From an uncultured Verrucomicrobiae bacterium (GTDB lineage: Bacteria > Verrucomicrobiota > Verrucomicrobiia > Limisphaerales > Palsa-1400): a stretch of 64,000 nt of DNA. The stretch's first letter is position 1. The number at the start of each line of letters is the position of its first letter. Positions 7,201-54,000 of the stretch are shown in pieces. A program made the position numbers and the translations under genes. The stretch is from the NCBI GenBank assembly GCA_963759415.1, contig CAVWZG010000002.1, positions 823,410-887,409 on the forward strand, read 5' to 3'. The notes beneath the pieces are model-generated. The model saw only the letters and a list, made by a program, of their open reading frames with translations. It was not told the DNA's origin and did no database searches.

Positions 7201-7321
7201 AGCCACCAACGCGATGGCCAAAGCCAAGCCGATTCGGACCGGCCCGAAAGTCGGCCGGAACGACCCGTGCCCCTGCGGCAGCAAGAAGAAATACAAGCAC
7301 TGCTGCGGGAAGAATGGCTGA
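4247..7321 (+). CDS. secA: preprotein translocase ATPase SecA
   Basis: ORF 4202..7321. The conserved SecA N-terminus begins at the second Met (MINFLIRKIAGSNNER). Motor motif DEVDSILIDEARTPLIISG. C-terminal zinc finger CPCGSKKKYKHCCG. Confidence 0.95.
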   Translation: MINFLIRKIAGSNNERQVKKMRPRVAKINEIEAGLQSLPDEALQQKTEAWKAELSKIEDDKELALRLNDMLPEAYAVVKNACRRLLGREITVRDHVWKWDMVPFDVQLIGGTALHLGKITEMATGEGKTLVATMPVYLNALSGRGVHLVTVNDYLAARDSEWMGAVYRFLGLTVGCILHDQSPAERRAQYDCDITYGTNAEFGFDYLRDNGMATRREEQVQRGHYFAIVDEVDSILIDEARTPLIISGPSVIAVDNQYDRFKPQVEALVRTQDKLSARFISEAEELIKKLHPADGSNPSDPSAVEHEIGILLFRVKSGSPRSTGLMKLLEDPENIRLMNKAELEMHADQSKKALYAEKEELFFAMDEKTHEADLTEKGRNFMRPEEPDAFLLPDLTVKFHEIDSGAELDPRKRLDLKAAVQTEFETKALQIHTISQLLKAYSLYQLDVHYVIENGKVVIVDEHTGRPMYGRRWSDGLHQAVEAKEGVEIERETQTLATITIQNYFRLYKKLAGMTGTAETEAGEFLDIYKLGVLVIPTNRPVARKDANDSVYKTKREKFNAVIKEITTIHNQGRPILVGTVSVETSEQVSRLLKKVGIIHSVLNAKYHQQEAEIVSRAGQRGSVTIATNMAGRGTDIKLGEGVAGVGGLHVIGTERHESRRIDRQLRGRCARQGDPGSSHFFISLEDDLMRLFGSDRIVKVMEKVGLEEGQELEHFMLNKSIEQAQKRVEQHNFQRRKRTLEYDDVMNKQREVIYGFRDEVINAPDVRDRLMDIMEEVATEKVRELTPESGDPADWNARPLADWVTLNFPLRIPEAEIIKAAQSGQEQPAAGSAFEGLSAAQFAVCQFVCKAVREAYELKISFEQPDALKTVERYIILKAVDTLWQEHLYGMDSLRDSIGLRAYGQRDPLIEYKAEAFKVFDELMTNIKTEICHNIFRSASSMRAFEGFMRNLPPTTTHQAAESFGGAASTAAADSKKASDMVMEATNAMAKAKPIRTGPKVGRNDPCPCGSKKKYKHCCGKNG

Positions 7322-7330
7322 CCAATTTTT

Positions 7331-7405
7331 CTTACTCCTAATCTTACTCCTAATCTTAATTCTCTTCCAAAGGAGATTAAGATTAGGAGTAAGATTAGGA
7401 GTAAG
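7331..7405. repeat. hexamer-periodic palindrome, copy 1 (arms of CTTACT/CCTAAT/CTTAAT units)
   Basis: Left arm cttactcctaatcttactcctaatcttaat (7331-7360) is the exact reverse complement of attaagattaggagtaagattaggagtaag (7376-7405). The spacer is itself mostly self-complementary. Begins 10 nt after the secA stop. Confidence 0.9.
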
Positions 7406-7515
7406 AGCAGAAAACGCCGTCTCAGTCCACCCGCACGGGCCGGTAGGGCGAGACTCTGTCGAGCCGTGACTGTTCCACATCCCCCCTGCGGAATCGCGGC
7501 GGCGAACAGATTACT

Positions 7516-33922: not shown

Positions 33923-33997
33923 TGGCGATCCTGAGGGGAATCGAGCCCTTGCTACCGCCGTGATAGGGCGGTGTCCTAACCGCTAGACGACGGGGTC
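33923..33997 (-). tRNA. tRNA-like sequence (Glu/Asp-type body, anticodon loop CTATCAC = ATC), probably degenerate
   Basis: Minus strand: GACCCCG TC GTCT AGCGGTTA GGAC A CCGCC CTATCAC GGCGG TAGC AAGGG CTCGATT CCCCT CAGGATC G CCA. D and anticodon arms are perfect. The acceptor stem has 2 C-A mismatches, the T stem has 1 A-C mismatch and the T-loop starts with C instead of T. Confidence 0.45.
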
Positions 33998-36410: not shown

Positions 36411-36451
36411 TCGATCTCTGTTAATCCGGAACTGTCATAATTATAGGACTG

Positions 36452-36485
36452 ACCCCATGTCCCTTTTGACCCCATGTCCCTTTTG
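36452..36485 (+). repeat. 2 x 17-nt tandem duplication (accccatgtcccttttg)
   Basis: Exact units at 36452-36468 and 36469-36485. Confidence 0.9.
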
Positions 36486-36499
36486 TCTCCATTGGTTTT

Positions 36500-36573
36500 C
36501 CTAATCTTAATCTTAATCTTAATCCTAATCTCTCCATTTCGGGCCGAGGCGACAGAGATTAGGATTAAGAGGG
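36500..36573. repeat. hexamer-periodic palindrome, copy 2 (asymmetric arms)
   Basis: Left arm cctaatcttaatcttaatcttaatcctaatctct. Right arm agagattaggattaagagg. A 21-nt spacer. Confidence 0.8.
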
Positions 36574-36648
36574 GAAACCGAAAGGGCCGAAAGGGGCGCC
36601 GCCGAAAAAGTCCCTCGACTTTCCGCCTCTCAAGGGCCACACTGCCGC

Positions 36649-40130: not shown

Positions 40131-42182
40131 CTAGCTGGCTCCGGCCCGCTGCTTTCTTCCGCGGGACGGTTTTTTGTAATGGACTTCCCGTGTCGGCGTG
40201 GGGGTCTTGTCTCCGTCCGCGCCAAAATTGCTTTTCAATTCCCGGATCTGGTCGCGCAACAAGGCCGCCTTCTCGAATTCCAGGTTGTCGGAGGCTTCCA
40301 GCATCTCCTCTTGCAGGCTGCGCAAGGTCTCGGTCACGTCGAAATTGCCGCCGGTCTCGCGCAAGACCATCTCCGCCCGCTGGCGCGTGTTCTGGTAAAC
40401 GGCCAGGCTGTCCTCCACCGCCCGGCTGACGCTGCGCGGGGTGATGTGGTGCTCCTGGTTGTAGGCCAGTTGCCGCCCGCGCCGATATTCCGTCACGGCC
40501 AAAAATTTCTCGATGCTGCGCGTCCTAACCTCGGCGTAAAGGATCACTTCCCCGTGCAGATGCCGCGCCGCCCGGCCCGCCGTCTGGATCAGGCTGGTCG
40601 CGCTGCGCAGATAGCCTTCCTTGTCCGCGTCCAGGATCGCCACCAGCGAAACTTCCGGTAGGTCCAACCCTTCCCGCAGCAGGTTGATGCCCACCAGCAC
40701 GTCGAAATCCCCCTTGCGCAAGGCCCGCAGCACTTCCACCCGTTCGATGGCGTCGATTTCGCTGTGCAGGTAGCGCACGTTGACCCCCAAGTCCCGCAGG
40801 TAATCGGTCAATTCCTCCGCCGATTTCTTGGTCAGGGTGGTGACCAGCGTTCGTTCCTTGCTGGCCGTGCGCTTGCGAACTTCCTCCAGCAAGTCGTCAA
40901 TCTGGCCCTTCAACGGCTTGAGCGTGACCTTGGGATCCACCAAACCGGTCGGGCGCACGATCTGCTCCACCACCCGGCCTTGCGACCAGTTCAACTCCTG
41001 CTCCTGCGGCGTGGCGCTGAGGTAAATCGTTTGATTTTGCAGCGATTGAAATTCCTGGAAATCCAGCGGCCGGTTGTCCAGCGCGCTGGGAAGCCGGAAG
41101 CCGTGCTCGACCAGCACCGTTTTGCGCGAACGGTCCCCCGCGTGCATCCCGCCGATCTGCGGCACCGAGGCGTGCGATTCGTCAATCACCAGCAGATAAT
41201 CCTTGGGGAAAAAATCCAGCAACGTGCCTGGCCGCGAACCCGCCGGACGCCCCGCCAGGTGCCGCGAATAATTCTCGATGCCCGAGCAAAAGCCCATTTC
41301 CTCCATCATTTCCAGGTCGTATTCCGTGCGCATTTTGATGCGTTGCGCCTCCAGCAATTTGCCCCGCTGCTCGAACCACGCGATGCGGTCGCCCAACTCC
41401 TCGCGAATGGCCAGGATGGCCCGCTTGATCATCGGCTCCGGGGTGACGAATTGTTTGGCCGGGAAGATCACAATCGACGCCGGACTCTCGGTTTTTTCCC
41501 CCGTCAGCGGCTCGAAGCGCGAGAGCCGTTCAATCTCGTCGCCGAAAAACTCGATGCGCAGGCCGTCCTCGCTCCAGGAGGGCCGCAACTCGACCACGTC
41601 CCCGCGCACGCGGAATTGCCCGCGCTCGAAGGCCACGTCGTTGCGCGAGTATTGCAAATCCACCAGCCGCCCCAGCAGTTGGTCGCGCGTGACCGCCTGG
41701 CCCGTGAAGACCTGTTGCACCAGCGCCTCGTAATTTTCCTTGCTACCGATGCCGTAAATGCACGACACGCTGGCCACGACGATCACGTCCCGCCGAGTCA
41801 AAAGCGAACTCATGGTCGAGAGGCGCATCCGCTCGATCTCCTCATTGATGCTGGAATCCTTTTCGATGAAGGTATCGGTGCGCGGGATGTAGGCTTCCGG
41901 CTGGTAATAATCGAAGTAGCTGACGAAATACTCGACCGCGTTGCCGGGAAAGAAGCTCTTGAACTCCGCGTAGAGCTGGGCGGCCAGCGTCTTGTTATGG
42001 GAGATGACCAGCGTCGGTTTATTCGCGTTCTGGATGACATTGGCGACCGTAAAAGTCTTCCCCGATCCGGTCACGCCGACGAGCGTTTGGTGTTTGGCCC
42101 CGGCCAACACCCCCTCCGTGAGCCGTGTGATCGCCTGAGGCTGATCGCCGGCCGGCTGATAAGGCGCGGACAACTCGAACAT
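40131..42182 (-). CDS. uvrB: excinuclease ABC subunit B
   Basis: 683 aa. GVTGSGKTF Walker [10 protein letters not shown] helicase motif and a C-terminal UVR domain ...[15 protein letters not shown]. Confidence 0.95.
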
Positions 42183-42248
42183 AAACGATTAACGTACGAA
42201 GCCCGCGCCCACCTGTCAAACCCGCCGGGCTGGTGTTTTGCCGTTCCT

Positions 42249-42319
42249 ATAATCTTAATCTTAATCTTAATCCTGATCCTAATCGGAAGAGATTAAGATT
42301 AGGATTAGGATTAAGAGGG
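42249..42319. repeat. hexamer-periodic palindrome, copy 3, in the divergent uvrB / CII-like promoter region
   Basis: ataatcttaatcttaatcttaatcctgatcctaatc ggaaga gattaagattaggattaggattaagaggg. Confidence 0.8.
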
Positions 42320-42375
42320 AAAACCAAAGGGAATCCATCTTGCCGATGGTGTTGCCTTCCCTTATTCTCCTGGAC

Positions 42376-42885
42376 ATGGAATCCCATGAGCTTTTGCGCG
42401 AAGTGTTTCAAAAAGTCAGTCCCAAAGAGGCTGCGGCTGAAATGGGGCTTTCGCTTTCCATGATCTACAAATGGGCCGAACCGCCCACCAGCAGCAGCGG
42501 CGCGGCTAATCCGCTGGATCGCGTCGCCGTCCTGGTGCGATGCACCGGGGACCACAGCGTGGTGCAATGGATTTGTCACAAGGCCGGAGGCTTCTACGTC
42601 AGAAATCCCCGCGGCGGACACCCGCATCCGCTGCATTTGGTGCCCGCCATGAACAGCGTGGTGCAGGAGTTCGCGGATCTGTTGTCGGTCATGGCGGCGG
42701 CGGCCTCCGACAGCAAGATCACGCCGGCGGAATCCAAATCGATTCGCGCGCGCTGGGAGGAACTCAAGTCCGTGACGGAGGAATTCGTCCAATGCTGCGA
42801 GGAAGGCAATTTCCGCGACATCAAGCGGACCCTGCCGCCCAAGAGTTCAGGGCAGAGCAGCAGCTCTGCCCTACCGGGAAGGTGA
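42376..42885 (+). CDS. HTH regulator resembling phage 186 CII / CP76 family
   Basis: KEAAAEMGLSLSMIYKWAEP (HTH), then NPLDRVAVLVRCTGDHSVVQWI and ...DSKITPAESKSIRARWEELK. The layout recalls CP76-type CII proteins. Start is 42340 or 42376. Confidence 0.45.
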   Translation: MESHELLREVFQKVSPKEAAAEMGLSLSMIYKWAEPPTSSSGAANPLDRVAVLVRCTGDHSVVQWICHKAGGFYVRNPRGGHPHPLHLVPAMNSVVQEFADLLSVMAAAASDSKITPAESKSIRARWEELKSVTEEFVQCCEEGNFRDIKRTLPPKSSGQSSSSALPGR

Positions 42886-46013: not shown

Positions 46014-46969
46014 TGCCATTGCGAACCGTATTCATGGGGACCGCGGAATTCGCCTGCGCCAGCTTGAAGGCGTTGCTAGGCTCCAACGCCTGCACGGTGC
46101 TGGCGGTGGTGACGCAGCCGGACCGCCCCAAGGGGCGCAACTTGAAGGCGCAGCCGCCGTCTGTCAAGATAGTGGCGCAGGAGGCCGGACTGCGGGTCTG
46201 GCAGCCCGAGAGCGCCCGCGACGCGGCCTTTGCGACCGAATTGGGGGCGTTGGGAGCGGAGGTAATCGTGGTGGCGGCCTATGGCCAGATTCTGCCACAG
46301 AGCATTTTGGATGGGCCAAAGTTCGGGTGCGTCAACGTGCACAGTTCCCTGTTGCCGAAGTATCGCGGCGCGGCCCCGATCCAATGGGCCATGCTCAATC
46401 ACGAGCGGGAAACCGGCGTTTCCATCATGAAGATTGCGCCCGGCCTGGATACGGGCGATGTGTTGAGCCAGCGCGCCACGCCCATTGATCCTGACGAAAC
46501 GGCCGCCATGCTGCATGACCGGCTGGCGGTGATGGGAGCCGAGTTGCTGGCGGCCACGCTGCCTGCCTACGTCGCGGGCGCCATCACGCCACAACCGCAG
46601 GACAACGCGGCGGCAACCTACGCCAGAAAAATCACCAAGGCGGACGGGCGTCTGGATTGGTCGCTATCGGCGCAGGAGATGCGGAATCGAATGCTGGCTT
46701 TGACACCGTGGCCTGGCGCGTGGATGAATTGGACGGCATCGGACCGGCCGCGTTTATTGAAAATCTGGCGGGCACAGATTGAGCGTCGCCAGGGCGCGCC
46801 CGGCGAGGTATTGCAGGCGGACAAAACGGGGCTGGTGGTGGCGTGCGGGGCGGATGCCTTGCGCATCGAGCAATTACAGTTGGAAGGCGGCCGCAGCATG
46901 ACGGCGGCGGAATTCCTCGCGGGGCATGAGGTTAAAGCGGGATTGTTTGGCGCTGCTTCTTCCTCGTAA
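46013..46969 (+). CDS. fmt: methionyl-tRNA formyltransferase
   Basis: VFMGTAEFACASL..., VVTQPDRPKGR and NVHSSLLPKYRGAAPIQWA. Confidence 0.93.
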   Translation: MPLRTVFMGTAEFACASLKALLGSNACTVLAVVTQPDRPKGRNLKAQPPSVKIVAQEAGLRVWQPESARDAAFATELGALGAEVIVVAAYGQILPQSILDGPKFGCVNVHSSLLPKYRGAAPIQWAMLNHERETGVSIMKIAPGLDTGDVLSQRATPIDPDETAAMLHDRLAVMGAELLAATLPAYVAGAITPQPQDNAAATYARKITKADGRLDWSLSAQEMRNRMLALTPWPGAWMNWTASDRPRLLKIWRAQIERRQGAPGEVLQADKTGLVVACGADALRIEQLQLEGGRSMTAAEFLAGHEVKAGLFGAASSS

Positions 46970-47048
46970 TCATAATCTTAATCTTAATCCCCTCTTGCTC
47001 CTTCTGAGGGCGGGGCAGGATTAAGATTATGATTAAGATTAAGAAAAG
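46967..47048. repeat. hexamer-periodic palindrome, copy 4, between convergent fmt and the S41 protease gene
   Basis: taatcataatcttaatcttaatcc ... aggattaagattatgattaagattaag. The fmt TAA stop lies inside the left arm. Confidence 0.85.
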
Positions 47049-47054
47049 AGAGTA

Positions 47055-50727: not shown

Positions 50728-50824
50728 GGGTGGAAACAGAGAAATTCAACCACGGATTTCACTGATTTCACGGATAAGAAATGATGTATGTTGGCTAACG
50801 GTGCTCAGCAGGGGAGCGATTAGC

Positions 50825-50908
50825 CCCCGGTAGGGCGAAACTCCGTTGAGCCTTGACTCGATTTAAAGGGATAAAGTCAAGGCTCAACGGAGTTTCGCCC
50901 TACCGGGG
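50825..50908. repeat. perfect 34-bp inverted repeat with a 16-nt spacer
   Basis: ccccggtagggcgaaactccgttgagccttgact (50825-50858) is the exact reverse complement of 50875-50908. Related half-sites at about 7437-7470 and about 40090-40120. Confidence 0.95.
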
Positions 50909-50977
50909 AGACTTGCAGGTCTTGGCTTTCTCGCTTCCATGTGCGATCCAGTTGTTGTATATTAGACGAAGGTTCCG

Positions 50978-51364: not shown

Positions 51365-51442
51365 AAACCACGGATTGCCTGGATTGCACGGATAAGAAAT
51401 GACGCGTTTCCCATCCGTGCAATCCGTGAAATCCGTGGTAGG
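51365..51442. repeat. imperfect hairpin built of cacggat units
   Basis: gaaaccacggattgcctggattgcacggataagaaatgacg ... cccatccgtgcaatccgtgaaatccgtggtagg. A half-copy is at 50748-50787. Confidence 0.75.
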
Positions 51443-51674: not shown

Positions 51675-53978
51675 ATGAACACATCCATTGCACGGCTTCG
51701 GCATTCTGTTTTCACCTTGATTGGCCTTCTCATGGCGTTTGACGGGGCGGGGCGGGGATGGGCGGCTGACGCGGAAGTGATTTATGGCTTTTCCCGCGAT
51801 GGTTCGGAGGCGGAGCGCAAACTTGAGGCGGCTTTTCGCGTTCTGCCACAGCCGGAAAATATGCGCCAGTATATGCAGCGCCTGAGCGCGCGGCCCCACC
51901 ATGTCGGCTCCGCCCGCGACAAGGAGAACGCGGAGTGGATTCGCGCGCAGATGAAGAGTTGGGGATGGGATTCGTCCATCGAATCGTTTGAGGTGCTTTT
52001 TCCCACCCCGAAGACGCGCGTGCTGGAAATGACCGAGCCTGTCCGTTTTACGGCGCTGCTGCAGGAGAAGGCCCTGGCGGTGGATCCGACTTCGGGACAG
52101 GTCGCGGAACAATTGCCGACTTACAACGCCTACTCCACCGATGGCGATGCGACGGGACTTCTGGTTTATGTCAATTACGGGTTGCCGGAGGATTACAAGG
52201 AGTTGGACCGTTTGGGCGTCTCGGTCAAGGGGGCGCTGGTCATGGCGAAATACGGGAAATCGTGGCGGGGCATTAAACCCAAGGTGGCGGCTGAACATGG
52301 GGCCATTGGCTGTATCCTTTACTCCGATCCCAAGGACGACGGCTATGCGGTGGATGACGTTTTTCCCGACGGGCCGATGCGGAACAGCAGCGGGGTGCAA
52401 CGCGGCAGCGTGATGGATTTTCCGTCCACCAGCCCCGGGGACCCGCTGACGCCCGGTTACGGGGCGGTCAAAGGCGCCAAACGGCTCTCGCTCAAAGAGG
52501 CCACGAGCATTACCAAAATACCGGTGCTGCCCATATCCTACGGCGAAGCCCAGCCGCTGCTGGCCCAACTCAAGGGACCGGTGGCGCCCGAGGCGTGGGG
52601 CGGCGCGTTACCGATCACTTACCACCTGGGGCCTGGTCCGGCGAAGGTCCACCTAAAGCTTGAATTCAACTGGGATATCAAACCCATTTACGATGTGATT
52701 TCCCGAATCCCGGGTGGCGCCGCGAGCAATGAATGGGTGATTCGCGGCAATCACCAGGACGGCTGGGTCAACGGCGCCAGCGACCCGCTTTCGGGGCAGG
52801 TGTGCCTGCTGGAGGAGGCGCGCGCCCTGGGGCATTTGTCGCAGCAAGGTTGGAAGCCGCGCCGGACCATCATCTACTGCTCCTGGGACGGAGAGGAGCC
52901 GATGCTGCTGGGATCCACCGAATGGGTGGAAACACACGCCGAGGAACTGCGCCAGCACACCGTGGCCTACGTTAATTCAGATGACAACCAGCGCGGTTGT
53001 TTGAGGATGAATGGGTCGCATATTCTGGAACATTTGGTCAACGGCGTGGCCCGTGAAATTGATGACCCGGAAGTGAAAATGAGCGTTTGGAAGCGCGCCC
53101 GGGCCTGCAAAATTGCCGAGGCCGCCAACGCGGCGGAGCGGCGCGAACTGCGGGCGCGTTCCGATCTACCCGTGACGGCGCTGGGGTCGGGCAGCGATTA
53201 CACGGGTTTTATTGATTTTCTGGGCATCCCGTGCCTGGATTTGACCTTCGAAGGAGAGACCAAAGATGCCGGCGTTTACCACTCCATCTACGACGACTAT
53301 TACTGGGTCACCCATTTTGGCGACACGAATTTTGCTTATGGCCGGGCCTTGGCGCAGACGGCAGGCACCACCATCTTGCGCCTGGCGGAGGCAGGAGTCA
53401 TTCCGTACGAGTTTAGCGGCCTTGCCGACGCGGTGGAAAAGTACACCACCGACTTGCAGGGCTTGCTGAAGACCAAACAGGTGGAGATCGAAGAGCAGAA
53501 TCGGGAGTTGGAGGAAGGCGTTTTTGTGGCCATGTCCGATCCGCGACATCCAAAGCGACCACCGGAAGCGGAAGCGGTTCCGCCGGAATTGAATTTTGCG
53601 CCGCTGGAAAACGCGGTCAAAGCATTGGCGGCAGCCGCGAAGCGTTATCAGAAGGCGGTGGCCAAAGCGCAGCCGGGATTGAACGATGCCTCGCAGAGCG
53701 TGGTGGCGGAGGAATTGAACCGGGTTCTATTGCGAGCGGAACGCTGTCTGACGGACCCTGCCGGTCTGCCACGCCGGCCGTGGTTCCAGCATTTGCTGTA
53801 TGCGCCGGGTGTTTATTCAGGGTATGGCGCGAAGACGATGCCGGGAGTGCGGGAAGGCATCGAGATGGGGCGCTACGGCGAAGCGGAGAAGGAAATCGTC
53901 CGCGTGGCCAAAGCGCTTGAGGCCGAGACGGCGTTGCTCAATTCGGCCTCGGCGATATTGGACCGGTTTCATCCTTAG
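51675..53978 (+). CDS. M28 family peptidase of the glutamate carboxypeptidase II / transferrin-receptor-like type
   Basis: 767 aa. Signal peptide, PA domain, M28 core (...YCSWDGEEPMLLGSTEWVE...) and a C-terminal TfR-like dimerisation region (...PRRPWFQHLLYAPG...). Confidence 0.85.
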   Translation: MNTSIARLRHSVFTLIGLLMAFDGAGRGWAADAEVIYGFSRDGSEAERKLEAAFRVLPQPENMRQYMQRLSARPHHVGSARDKENAEWIRAQMKSWGWDSSIESFEVLFPTPKTRVLEMTEPVRFTALLQEKALAVDPTSGQVAEQLPTYNAYSTDGDATGLLVYVNYGLPEDYKELDRLGVSVKGALVMAKYGKSWRGIKPKVAAEHGAIGCILYSDPKDDGYAVDDVFPDGPMRNSSGVQRGSVMDFPSTSPGDPLTPGYGAVKGAKRLSLKEATSITKIPVLPISYGEAQPLLAQLKGPVAPEAWGGALPITYHLGPGPAKVHLKLEFNWDIKPIYDVISRIPGGAASNEWVIRGNHQDGWVNGASDPLSGQVCLLEEARALGHLSQQGWKPRRTIIYCSWDGEEPMLLGSTEWVETHAEELRQHTVAYVNSDDNQRGCLRMNGSHILEHLVNGVAREIDDPEVKMSVWKRARACKIAEAANAAERRELRARSDLPVTALGSGSDYTGFIDFLGIPCLDLTFEGETKDAGVYHSIYDDYYWVTHFGDTNFAYGRALAQTAGTTILRLAEAGVIPYEFSGLADAVEKYTTDLQGLLKTKQVEIEEQNRELEEGVFVAMSDPRHPKRPPEAEAVPPELNFAPLENAVKALAAAAKRYQKAVAKAQPGLNDASQSVVAEELNRVLLRAERCLTDPAGLPRRPWFQHLLYAPGVYSGYGAKTMPGVREGIEMGRYGEAEKEIVRVAKALEAETALLNSASAILDRFHP

Positions 53979-54000
53979 ATTAGGAGTAGGATTAAGAGGC
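53976..54000 (+). repeat. hexamer-periodic element, half copy (single arm)
   Basis: tagattaggagtaggattaagaggc. The TAG stop of the M28 gene is part of it. Confidence 0.6.

Follow-up and report, generated by a model that had tools for sequence, protein, structure and literature searches.

Hexamer-periodic palindromes between genes of a Verrucomicrobiae bacterium are probably gene-less copies of a mobile cassette family resembling rRNA intervening sequences

Intervening sequences (IVSs) in rRNA genes have been known since 1990, and their origin and mobility have been called unclear (PMC4990558). The IVS of Coxiella burnetii is described as a selfish element in helix 45 of the 23S rRNA that carries an open reading frame (ORF) for an S23p protein (PF05635) inside an inverted-repeat stem; three tandem GACAGAT heptamers, variable in number between strains, closely precede the ORF, and the first of them is where RNase III cuts (PMC4990558). 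Avd of diversity-generating retroelements is a homologue of PF05635 (PMC10053308), a family that a preprint of 2024 describes as functionally uncharacterised (doi 10.1101/2024.02.27.582315). Here we describe five loci with hexamer-periodic palindromes in a 64,000-nucleotide stretch (the window) from an uncultured Verrucomicrobiae bacterium of the Palsa-1400 lineage (GenBank assembly GCA_963759415.1, contig CAVWZG010000002.1, positions 823,410 to 887,409). These loci are probably gene-less and partly decayed copies, in the manner of MITEs (miniature inverted-repeat transposable elements), of a mobile, IVS-like cassette family that carries a gene for a four-helix-bundle protein.

Two further kinds of repeat invite comparison. 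Intergenic arrays of 7-nt units have been described in Xanthomonas (GGGAATC, about 70 convergent inverted pairs per genome) and Nostoc (GGGGAYT) (PMC4692102) and in Beggiatoaceae (TAACTGA; PMC4679880); S23p or four-helix-bundle genes are mentioned in neither paper. Repetitive extragenic palindromes (REPs) are palindromes of 20–40 bp defined by a conserved tetranucleotide, GTAG or CGTC, at one of their ends (PMC3733652).

The window has a G+C content of 59.9%. A regular expression for at least two consecutive TA[AC]TC[TC] units, applied to both strands of the whole window, matched nine arms (four on the plus strand, five on the minus strand), all within five loci and none elsewhere in the 64 kb. 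First-order Markov shuffles of the window gave a chance expectation of 0.03 arms on average. The array unit at the five loci is TAATCT, with the variants TAATCC, TACTCC and TGATCC and the complements, and Tandem Repeats Finder placed period-6 or period-12 arrays with the consensus TAATCT/AGATTA at these same loci, the unit not being arrayed elsewhere. The five palindrome loci claimed by an earlier, sequence-only reading of the window are thus present as described. Loci 1–4 are inverted pairs forming hairpins of 20–35 bp. When each copy was folded, as that reading had proposed, these four gave stable hairpins, with predicted RNA folding energies of −54.1, −44.9, −38.1 and −35.1 kcal/mol (z from −13 to −4.3) that were unmatched by any shuffled sequence, and the single arm of locus 5 gave no significant RNA fold. 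The order of the arms is the same on either strand, with the G-free pyrimidine-rich arm first and the C-free purine-rich arm second. Rfam, run in both gathering and E-value modes, found nothing at the elements; its matches in the window were one tRNA and a chance hit to mir-266.

Copies of the family occur well outside this genome. A scan of one genome per species (185,579 species) with four consecutive TAMTCY units as the query returned at least 120 array loci, bearing out the expectation that a genome search would find more copies. Among the 120 listed, 69 come from the superphylum of Planctomycetes, Verrucomicrobia and Chlamydiae (PVC), namely from Verrucomicrobiota, Planctomycetota, Lentisphaerota and Kiritimatiellia, and include Akkermansia muciniphila, the cultured Chthoniobacter flavus Ellin428 and Pirellulaceae. 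Clear hairpin copies among the matches listed are also seen outside PVC, in Ignavibacteria/Melioribacter and a few Desulfobacterota; many of the other non-PVC matches listed are (TACTCC)n coding repeats and irrelevant here. One match, in a metagenome-assembled genome of Nitrospirales (L085:6001-6060), has a (TAATCC)4 array that continues into (TAACCC)n, a telomere repeat of the eukaryotic type, and is probably contamination of the bin.

The following counts again refer to the matches listed. Where an arm of the pair was at least 18 nt long, the pyrimidine-rich arm came first in 47 of 56 pairs and second in nine. Hexamer arrays of viral contigs are mostly A/T-rich giant-virus microsatellites, and we used such A/T-rich contigs with the same hexamer as a control: their polarity was 16 to 15, so that the fixed polarity is specific to the bacterial family. 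Gene context was taken from a crude gene finder based on G+C at third codon positions, which reproduces the Pfam-supported genes of the window. By this measure 91 of 102 arms lie outside gene calls, and the genes around them may be tandem, convergent or divergent. The gene end met by an outward-facing arm is a start in 25 cases and a stop in 18; for single arrays the numbers are 22 and 20. Array orientation relative to genes is unbiased at chromosomal PVC loci and gives no sign of a function linked to transcript polarity. ORFs between distant arm pairs revealed nothing consistent across the 120 loci, and those adjoining single arrays are ordinary housekeeping genes, not transposases. With a period of 6, an intergenic location, enrichment in PVC and a unit number that varies between related copies, the arrays qualify as intergenic short-tandem-repeat arrays.

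Alignment of the flanks revealed that the arrays are embedded within longer palindromes with conserved ends and cores. Subfamily B, found in both orientations in Verrucomicrobiota from peat and soil, has 24-nt terminal inverted repeats, GGGGCGCATTTCACTTTTTTGGGT; a metagenome scan with this end returned 62 loci, and a typical element measures 120–190 bp. The repeat and its complement bound 35 non-redundant relatives, which have direct repeats of 7–9 bp on their flanks (TGAAGACGG, TGTTCCAAC and GATTCGGC are examples). Scores for the direct repeats averaged 5.26 in these elements and 0.90 in mismatched flanks, and were 7 or higher in 29% versus 0.6% of cases. As judged from sequence, the terminal repeats and the 7–9 bp target-site duplications of the relatives indicate insertion of the transposase type. 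The length of the duplications points to a DDE-type enzyme and not to an HUH-type enzyme as for REPs and their REP-associated tyrosine transposases (RAYTs).

Decayed terminal inverted repeats also bound window copies 2 and 3. Read on the minus strand, element 2 can be aligned over its full length with L238, L246 and L257, three elements that lack an ORF, and its core is identical to that of L238 at 24 of 24 positions. The extension that the sequence-only reading had noticed in both copies 2 and 3 is real and represents the inner portion of the decayed terminal repeat. The flanks of element 3 resemble the matching parts of L122 and L278 as well as typical subfamily-B ends.

Subfamily A has other ends (GAATGGCGCTAAGTTAAG) around its own core (ACTGGTGGAGAACG) and is common to Akkermansia and a Kiritimatiellia genome; its terminal repeat had 0 matches in viral contigs. 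The ends and core of L016:4500-4850 from Akkermansia and L073:860-1020 from a lake Kiritimatiellia are nearly identical, which, at the sequence level, suggests either recent horizontal spread or strong constraint. Both elements are flanked by G+C-rich direct repeats of 11–13 nt.

Some subfamily-B elements hold an ORF between their arrays. The ORF of L278 matches PF05635 (E 5e-18), named "23S rRNA intervening sequence protein", and TIGR02436 (E 3e-14), a four helix bundle protein; the product is Avd-like. More than 5,400 proteins match it, and the best 120 of these are nearly all 125 residues long and at least 81% identical, several of them being named Limisphaerales or Verrucomicrobiota. The genome of the window probably holds a full-length homologue of this cargo (P0149) at another place. 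Full-length cassettes occur in three independent lineages (the L299 group, L309/L310 and L313/L316) and follow one plan: a terminal repeat, four to five TAATCY units, a gap of 2–5 nt, an ATG with 125 codons, an RGATTA array and a terminal repeat. The first unit of the RGATTA array provides the stop codon (GAT TAG or GAT TAA). In the predicted RNA fold of the full cassette, the 5′ and 3′ arrays and the ends pair with each other and close the ORF in a loop. A PF05635 ORF enclosed by an inverted-repeat stem is present in L299, L309, L313 and L278; the window copies have no ORF.

A series of graded internal deletions leads from the full cassette to the ORF-less hairpin (L259, L122, L289, L275, L297, L298, L269, L284 and L253). 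Its shorter members, L297, L298, L269, L284 and L253, keep the final codons ...CAC GAA GGA GAT TAG. In L122 the ORF is reduced to a fragment of 23 residues, a length insufficient for Pfam or NCBIfam; tblastn gave no further matches to it, and the cargo was recognized there from longer copies. In Akkermansia, locus L012 encodes the C terminus of a PF05635 protein (E 4e-13) whose TAA stop lies inside a (TAATCC)5 array.

Orthologous loci, whose comparison had been suggested by the sequence-only reading, differ in the presence of elements. The site between fmt and the S41 protease gene is filled by an 85-nt element in the window and is empty in the relatives L122–L125, whose Fmt proteins are about 79% identical and in which the stop codons of the two genes are 3 nt apart. 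The single element of L122 lies downstream of a YjeF gene, where the window site is empty. These relatives have zero or one element per 21 kb, compared with five in the 64 kb of the window. Copies with identical cores and ends differ in the number of units, as predicted by the claim that the arrays expand or contract by slippage. The array complementarity was 0.88 within one element and 0.84 between elements (p = 0.002).

Family membership of copy 2, the terminal repeats and target-site duplications of its relatives, the empty sites, the variation in unit number and the cassette architecture are established. The most probable account of the window loci, that they are MITE-like remnants of the cassette, would run as follows. 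Internal deletion of a cassette would leave two complementary arrays around a short core, as found in the window, and a DDE-type transposase would be supplied in trans. Replication slippage would let the arrays grow and shrink. Where the arrays are transcribed as parts of neighboring mRNAs, they would pair as A/U-rich duplexes of 20–35 bp that do not terminate transcription, and by analogy with rRNA IVSs such duplexes are probably substrates for RNase III or barriers to exonucleases. For host genes, consequences such as the donated stop codons and the changed C termini of fmt and the M28 peptidase may be incidental, and the fixed polarity in PVC may reflect descent from one cassette plan rather than selection.

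Like the IVSs of Leptospira and Coxiella (PMC4990558), the cassettes enclose a PF05635 gene between long inverted repeats that pair as a stem. They share with the Coxiella IVS short tandem repeats of variable copy number directly beside the ORF, and with IVSs in general the decay of the ORF, internal deletions and a sporadic distribution suggestive of horizontal transfer. Unlike IVSs, they use the hexamer TAATCY, most copies lack an ORF, and all copies lie between protein-coding genes instead of in helix 25 or 45 of 23S rRNA (Rfam detects no rRNA in the window). The 24-nt terminal repeats and 7–9 bp target-site duplications of subfamily B also set them apart, as these are not reported in PMC4990558. 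With MITEs and mobile insertion cassettes, which have no transposase, are bounded by terminal inverted repeats and may or may not include a passenger gene (reviewed in PMC3184786), the family shares a small size (120–260 bp, rising to about 500 bp where cargo is present), the possession of terminal inverted repeats and target-site duplications, a high number of copies in either orientation, presence/absence variation between relatives and intergenic location. In contrast to MITEs, its stems consist of hypervariable hexamer microsatellites, it has a four-helix-bundle passenger gene, and some copies are entirely without terminal repeats; the DNA searched contained no parent insertion sequence or transposase.

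The sequence-only reading had called the family REP/MITE-like. The MITE part fits dispersed repeats of this kind; the REP part is not supported, the GTAG/CGTC tag being absent. As with REPs, REP doublets forming hairpins (REPINs) and their RAYT transposases (PMC3733652, PMC3337134), abundant extragenic palindromes, often in inverted pairs, are seen, and for REPs too roles in mRNA stability have been proposed. The family differs from them in having, in place of the tag, arrays of TAATCY whose first unit is directly preceded by TCY, and stems that are A/T-rich and periodic, not G+C-rich. The arrays of Xanthomonas, Nostoc and Beggiatoaceae are alike in their 6–7-nt units, nearly exclusive intergenic location, length variation between relatives and patchy phylogeny. 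They differ in that the hexamer here is A/T-rich, which makes a G-quadruplex impossible, and in that the arrays of the present family are linked with a cargo gene as well as with terminal repeats and target-site duplications.

Several observations weigh against descent of the window loci from the cassette. Copies 1 and 4 have no terminal inverted repeat, and their membership is argued from the arrays and a likeness of the short core; at the window copies themselves no target-site duplication is readable. L012 is the only one of the 120 loci listed with a PF05635 gene beside its array, and the descent of most copies is therefore extrapolated from subfamily B. No transposase ORF was found beside the isolated terminal repeats of L260, L264, L266, L267 and L287 in the retrieved DNA, to which that search was confined, and cassette DNA compared with plasmid and phage collections yielded neither a match nor a transposase with matching ends. 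Identical arrays occur in subfamily A with an unrelated outer repeat, which makes the delimitation of the mobile unit provisional. The small difference between 0.88 and 0.84 means that pairing comes mostly from the common unit, so that selection for pairing is weak or absent. The gene-context statistics are crude, and the probable cutting of array stems by RNase III is an argument from analogy.

A role at transcript ends would make the hairpins terminators or stabilizers of mRNA 3′ ends that were selected at gene ends. Three of the five window copies lie no more than 10 nt from a stop codon, the hairpins are very stable, and many copies elsewhere among the matches listed lie within 60 nt of a stop codon. 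We regard this role as improbable, since no T-run follows the stem on either strand of the four hairpins, and in 45 paired elements, drawn from many genomes, the sequence that follows the 3′ arm is rich in purines. For the proposal of the sequence-only reading that the elements double as terminators there is no support, on the same grounds: a consensus scan was negative at the four hairpins on both strands, with no U-run and purine-rich tails. In addition, the stems are A/U-rich with few G–C pairs, outward arms meet starts 25 times and stops 18 times among the matches listed, and the fmt copy is wholly missing from close relatives. Pfam confirmed the neighboring genes named by that reading. 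A restriction of the family to gene 3′ ends is not supported, and copy 3 sits between divergent gene starts. Still harder to accept is growth in place, by which slippage in A/T-rich intergenic hairpins would have made the palindromes as immobile microsatellites unrelated to the cassettes. This would accord with unit numbers and orders that differ in every copy, with loops that differ between window copies and with arms hardly more complementary within than between elements. We consider it very improbable, because the TAATCY unit recurs across phyla, cores and terminal repeats are common to unrelated loci and to different genomes, elements have target-site duplications, deletion intermediates keep the ends of the gene, and whole elements are present or absent at orthologous sites; for subfamily B it is already contradicted.

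More weight, though still on the unlikely side, belongs to the arrays as functional cis elements, either protein-binding arrays or translation leaders or promoters that phages also use. Candidate binders would be ribosomal protein S1, CsrA, a four-helix-bundle protein or a transposase, and the palindromes would be paired outward-facing copies. Seven single purine-rich arrays of nearly identical sequence, GGATTAAGATTAAGATTAAGAGTAAGATTAAGA, lie on the phage contig L212 of IMG/VR (62% G+C, with an SU10-type capsid gene), at 144, 5884, 6303, 7783, 9518, 11047 and 11485, all on the coding strand. Most of them lie 0–30 nt upstream of start codons, including that of the major capsid gene, and one lies 109 nt upstream. 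In L036, L153, L176 and L167, arrays directly adjoin either a GGAGG motif or the ATG of genes for signal-peptide proteins, the arrays of full cassettes abut start and stop codons, and identical arrays occur in two subfamilies with unrelated ends. A published analogue exists in the TAACTGA heptamer arrays directly upstream of start codons (PMC4679880). Against a cis-acting function, chromosomal PVC loci among the matches listed have no orientation bias toward genes, either strand occurs upstream of start codons (the pyrimidine-rich one in Akkermansia), no sigma-70-type promoter was matched at the four hairpins, and copies are dispensable in relatives. The L212 arrays and the ATG-abutting arrays of related contigs nevertheless keep a leader or binding site in consideration. 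Among other candidates, a sigma-70 −10/−35 register does not fit, the hexamer period forcing a 19-nt spacer; telomerase-like repeat addition, DnaA-trio, Hfq ARN motifs, an RNase E consensus and CsrA GGA sites were set aside as untestable or of poor fit.

PF05635 genes on plasmids of other phyla, in cyanobacteria and Azospirillum, have inverted arrays of 7–8-nt units that differ from the PVC hexamer. In Nostoc, one such gene has (AGGAGTC)n upstream and (GACTCCT)n downstream, and another is flanked by (GGGGAAA)n and (CCCCTTT)n; in Nostoc flagelliforme, (GCAGGGA)n and its complement are accompanied by an outer inverted repeat of 28 nt. Inverted GGAGATAA/TAATCTCC arrays are present at 126543-126899 of the Picosynechococcus sp. 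PCC 7003 plasmid NZ_CP016476.1 (L319), where a type III-B CRISPR operon has the four-helix-bundle gene between its cas10 and cmr3. Purine-rich and pyrimidine-rich quasi-repeats surround the gene in Leptolyngbya, and a 38-nt inverted match of GGACAGA/GGACGGA units does so in Azospirillum. Oscillatoria and Treponema have arrays on both sides in direct orientation, and the gene of Pseudanabaena is essentially without arrays. In Pseudanabaena locus L328, a four-helix-bundle gene follows cas2. A second PF05635/bAvd gene in L309 has inverted CTGACCG heptamers on its flanks, and in one Nostoc operon the PF05635 gene occupies two different intergenic positions (L318 versus L321). The array polarity of the cyanobacterial cassettes is opposite to that in PVC. 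For 13 PF05635 genes and 34 control genes from the window, we compared the 90 nt on the upstream side with the 90 nt on the downstream side and took the longest stretch of near-complementarity. Its median length was 22 nt for the PF05635 genes and 10 nt for the controls (maximum 14), and nine of the 13 PF05635 genes exceeded every control (p = 8e-5).

A wider reading, which we put forward as tentative, takes inverted arrays of 6–8-nt units as the general signature of one unrecognized class of mobile cassettes that carry Avd-like PF05635 genes. It would unite rRNA intervening sequences, the PVC hexamer palindromes, at least some cyanobacterial heptamer arrays and possibly the short tandemly repeated repetitive (STRR) sequences and the Xanthomonas arrays, and the four-helix-bundle protein might serve mobility, processing or regulation by acting on the array stem in its own transcript or DNA. 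The literature searched in full text gave no account of the PVC hexamer family or of a link between arrays and PF05635, although such absence is no proof of novelty. PF05635 is a very numerous family, and the cassettes display the gene-in-a-stem plan outside rRNA genes. Their terminal repeats, target-site duplications, empty sites and deletion series make IVS-like mobility directly testable, and experiments are possible in the culturable Akkermansia muciniphila and Chthoniobacter flavus, where elements occur. The cassettes also offer a concrete origin for the puzzling lineage-specific short tandem repeats of intergenic DNA. Elements alter protein C termini (fmt and the M28 peptidase), enter operons, as between cas10 and cmr3 on the Picosynechococcus plasmid, and will confuse gene callers and assemblers.

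In the window, element 1 (7329–7407, no strand assigned) is a hairpin of arrays with a short core only. Its left array covers approximately 7330–7362 (TACTCC/TAATCT units) and its right array 7374–7409, as located by sequence and regular expression. It begins 8 nt past the stop codon of secA (7319–7321), whose product was identified by Pfam. A terminal inverted repeat is not recognizable in element 1, and no terminator or promoter consensus was found there.

Element 2 (36452–36603, minus strand) is a complete but decayed subfamily-B element flanked by plus-strand genes for a TPR protein and an LMF1-like protein (Pfam). In plus-strand coordinates, a terminal repeat remnant at 36574–36603 (GGGGCGCCG...CCGAAAGGG) adjoins a purine-rich array at 36556–36573, followed by the core at 36532–36555, a pyrimidine-rich array at 36502–36531 and the second terminal remnant at 36452–36501. 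Tandem Repeats Finder reported a perfect 17-nt tandem duplication at 36450–36485 (TGACCCCATGTCCCTTT twice), which duplicates the outer end of the terminal remnant.

Element 3 (42227–42339, no strand assigned), likewise a decayed subfamily-B element, lies between the 5′ ends of the divergent uvrB (minus strand, 40131–42182) and a CII/CP76-like gene (plus strand, 42340–42885), both recognized by Pfam. It consists of a left remnant at 42227–42247 (GGGCTGGTGTTTTGCCGTTCC), a pyrimidine-rich array at 42250–42285, a core of 4 nt, a purine-rich array at 42290–42319 and a right remnant at 42316–42339 (AGGGAAAACCAAAGGGAATCCATC).

Element 4 (46964–47052, no strand assigned) lies between the convergent fmt and S41 protease genes, with arrays at 46967–46990 and 47018–47041 around a 27-nt core. 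The core ends in GGGCGGGGCAGG, similar to the core ends of L243, L292 and L077 and to one subfamily-B lineage. Element 4 substitutes for the final codons of fmt and provides its stop codon. Element 5 (53977–53999, plus strand) is a lone purine-rich array, AGATTAGGAGTAGGATTAAGAGG, a half element without a partner arm; L260 has a similar half element, with an array and a terminal repeat after a stop codon. The sequence-only reading had placed stop codons within the element in two cases, and both were borne out: the TAA of fmt (46967–46969) is the first TAA of the left array of element 4, and the TAG of the M28 peptidase gene (53976–53978; Pfam) overlaps the array of element 5.

The window contains other repeats. 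A periodic palindrome with a 9-nt unit lies at 51368–51437; its sequence is ACCACGGATTG CCTGGATTG CACGGATAA, followed after a loop by CATCCGTG CAATCCGTG AAATCCGTGGT, and 600 nt upstream of it, at 50751–50777, this 9-nt unit recurs as a single array. Positions 50822–50911 contain a palindrome of about 40 bp (CCCCGGTAGGGCGAAACTCCGTTGAGCCTTGACT...) that is G+C-rich and almost perfect; it is the source of the chance mir-266 match in Rfam. Element 1 is followed on its right, after 35 nt, by a half copy related to this palindrome (7440–7471), and a motif of similar kind adjoins the arrays in L036. The tRNA gene at 33923–33997 on the minus strand (43.9 bits in Rfam) was called tRNA-Asp with anticodon 'atc' by ARAGORN; this call may be wrong, as A at position 34 would be an unusual feature of tRNA-Asp. 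Finally, Tandem Repeats Finder detected adjacent tandem repeats at 1248–1412, a 40-nt unit in 2.3 copies and a 19-nt unit in 3.1 copies, the latter 97% identical.

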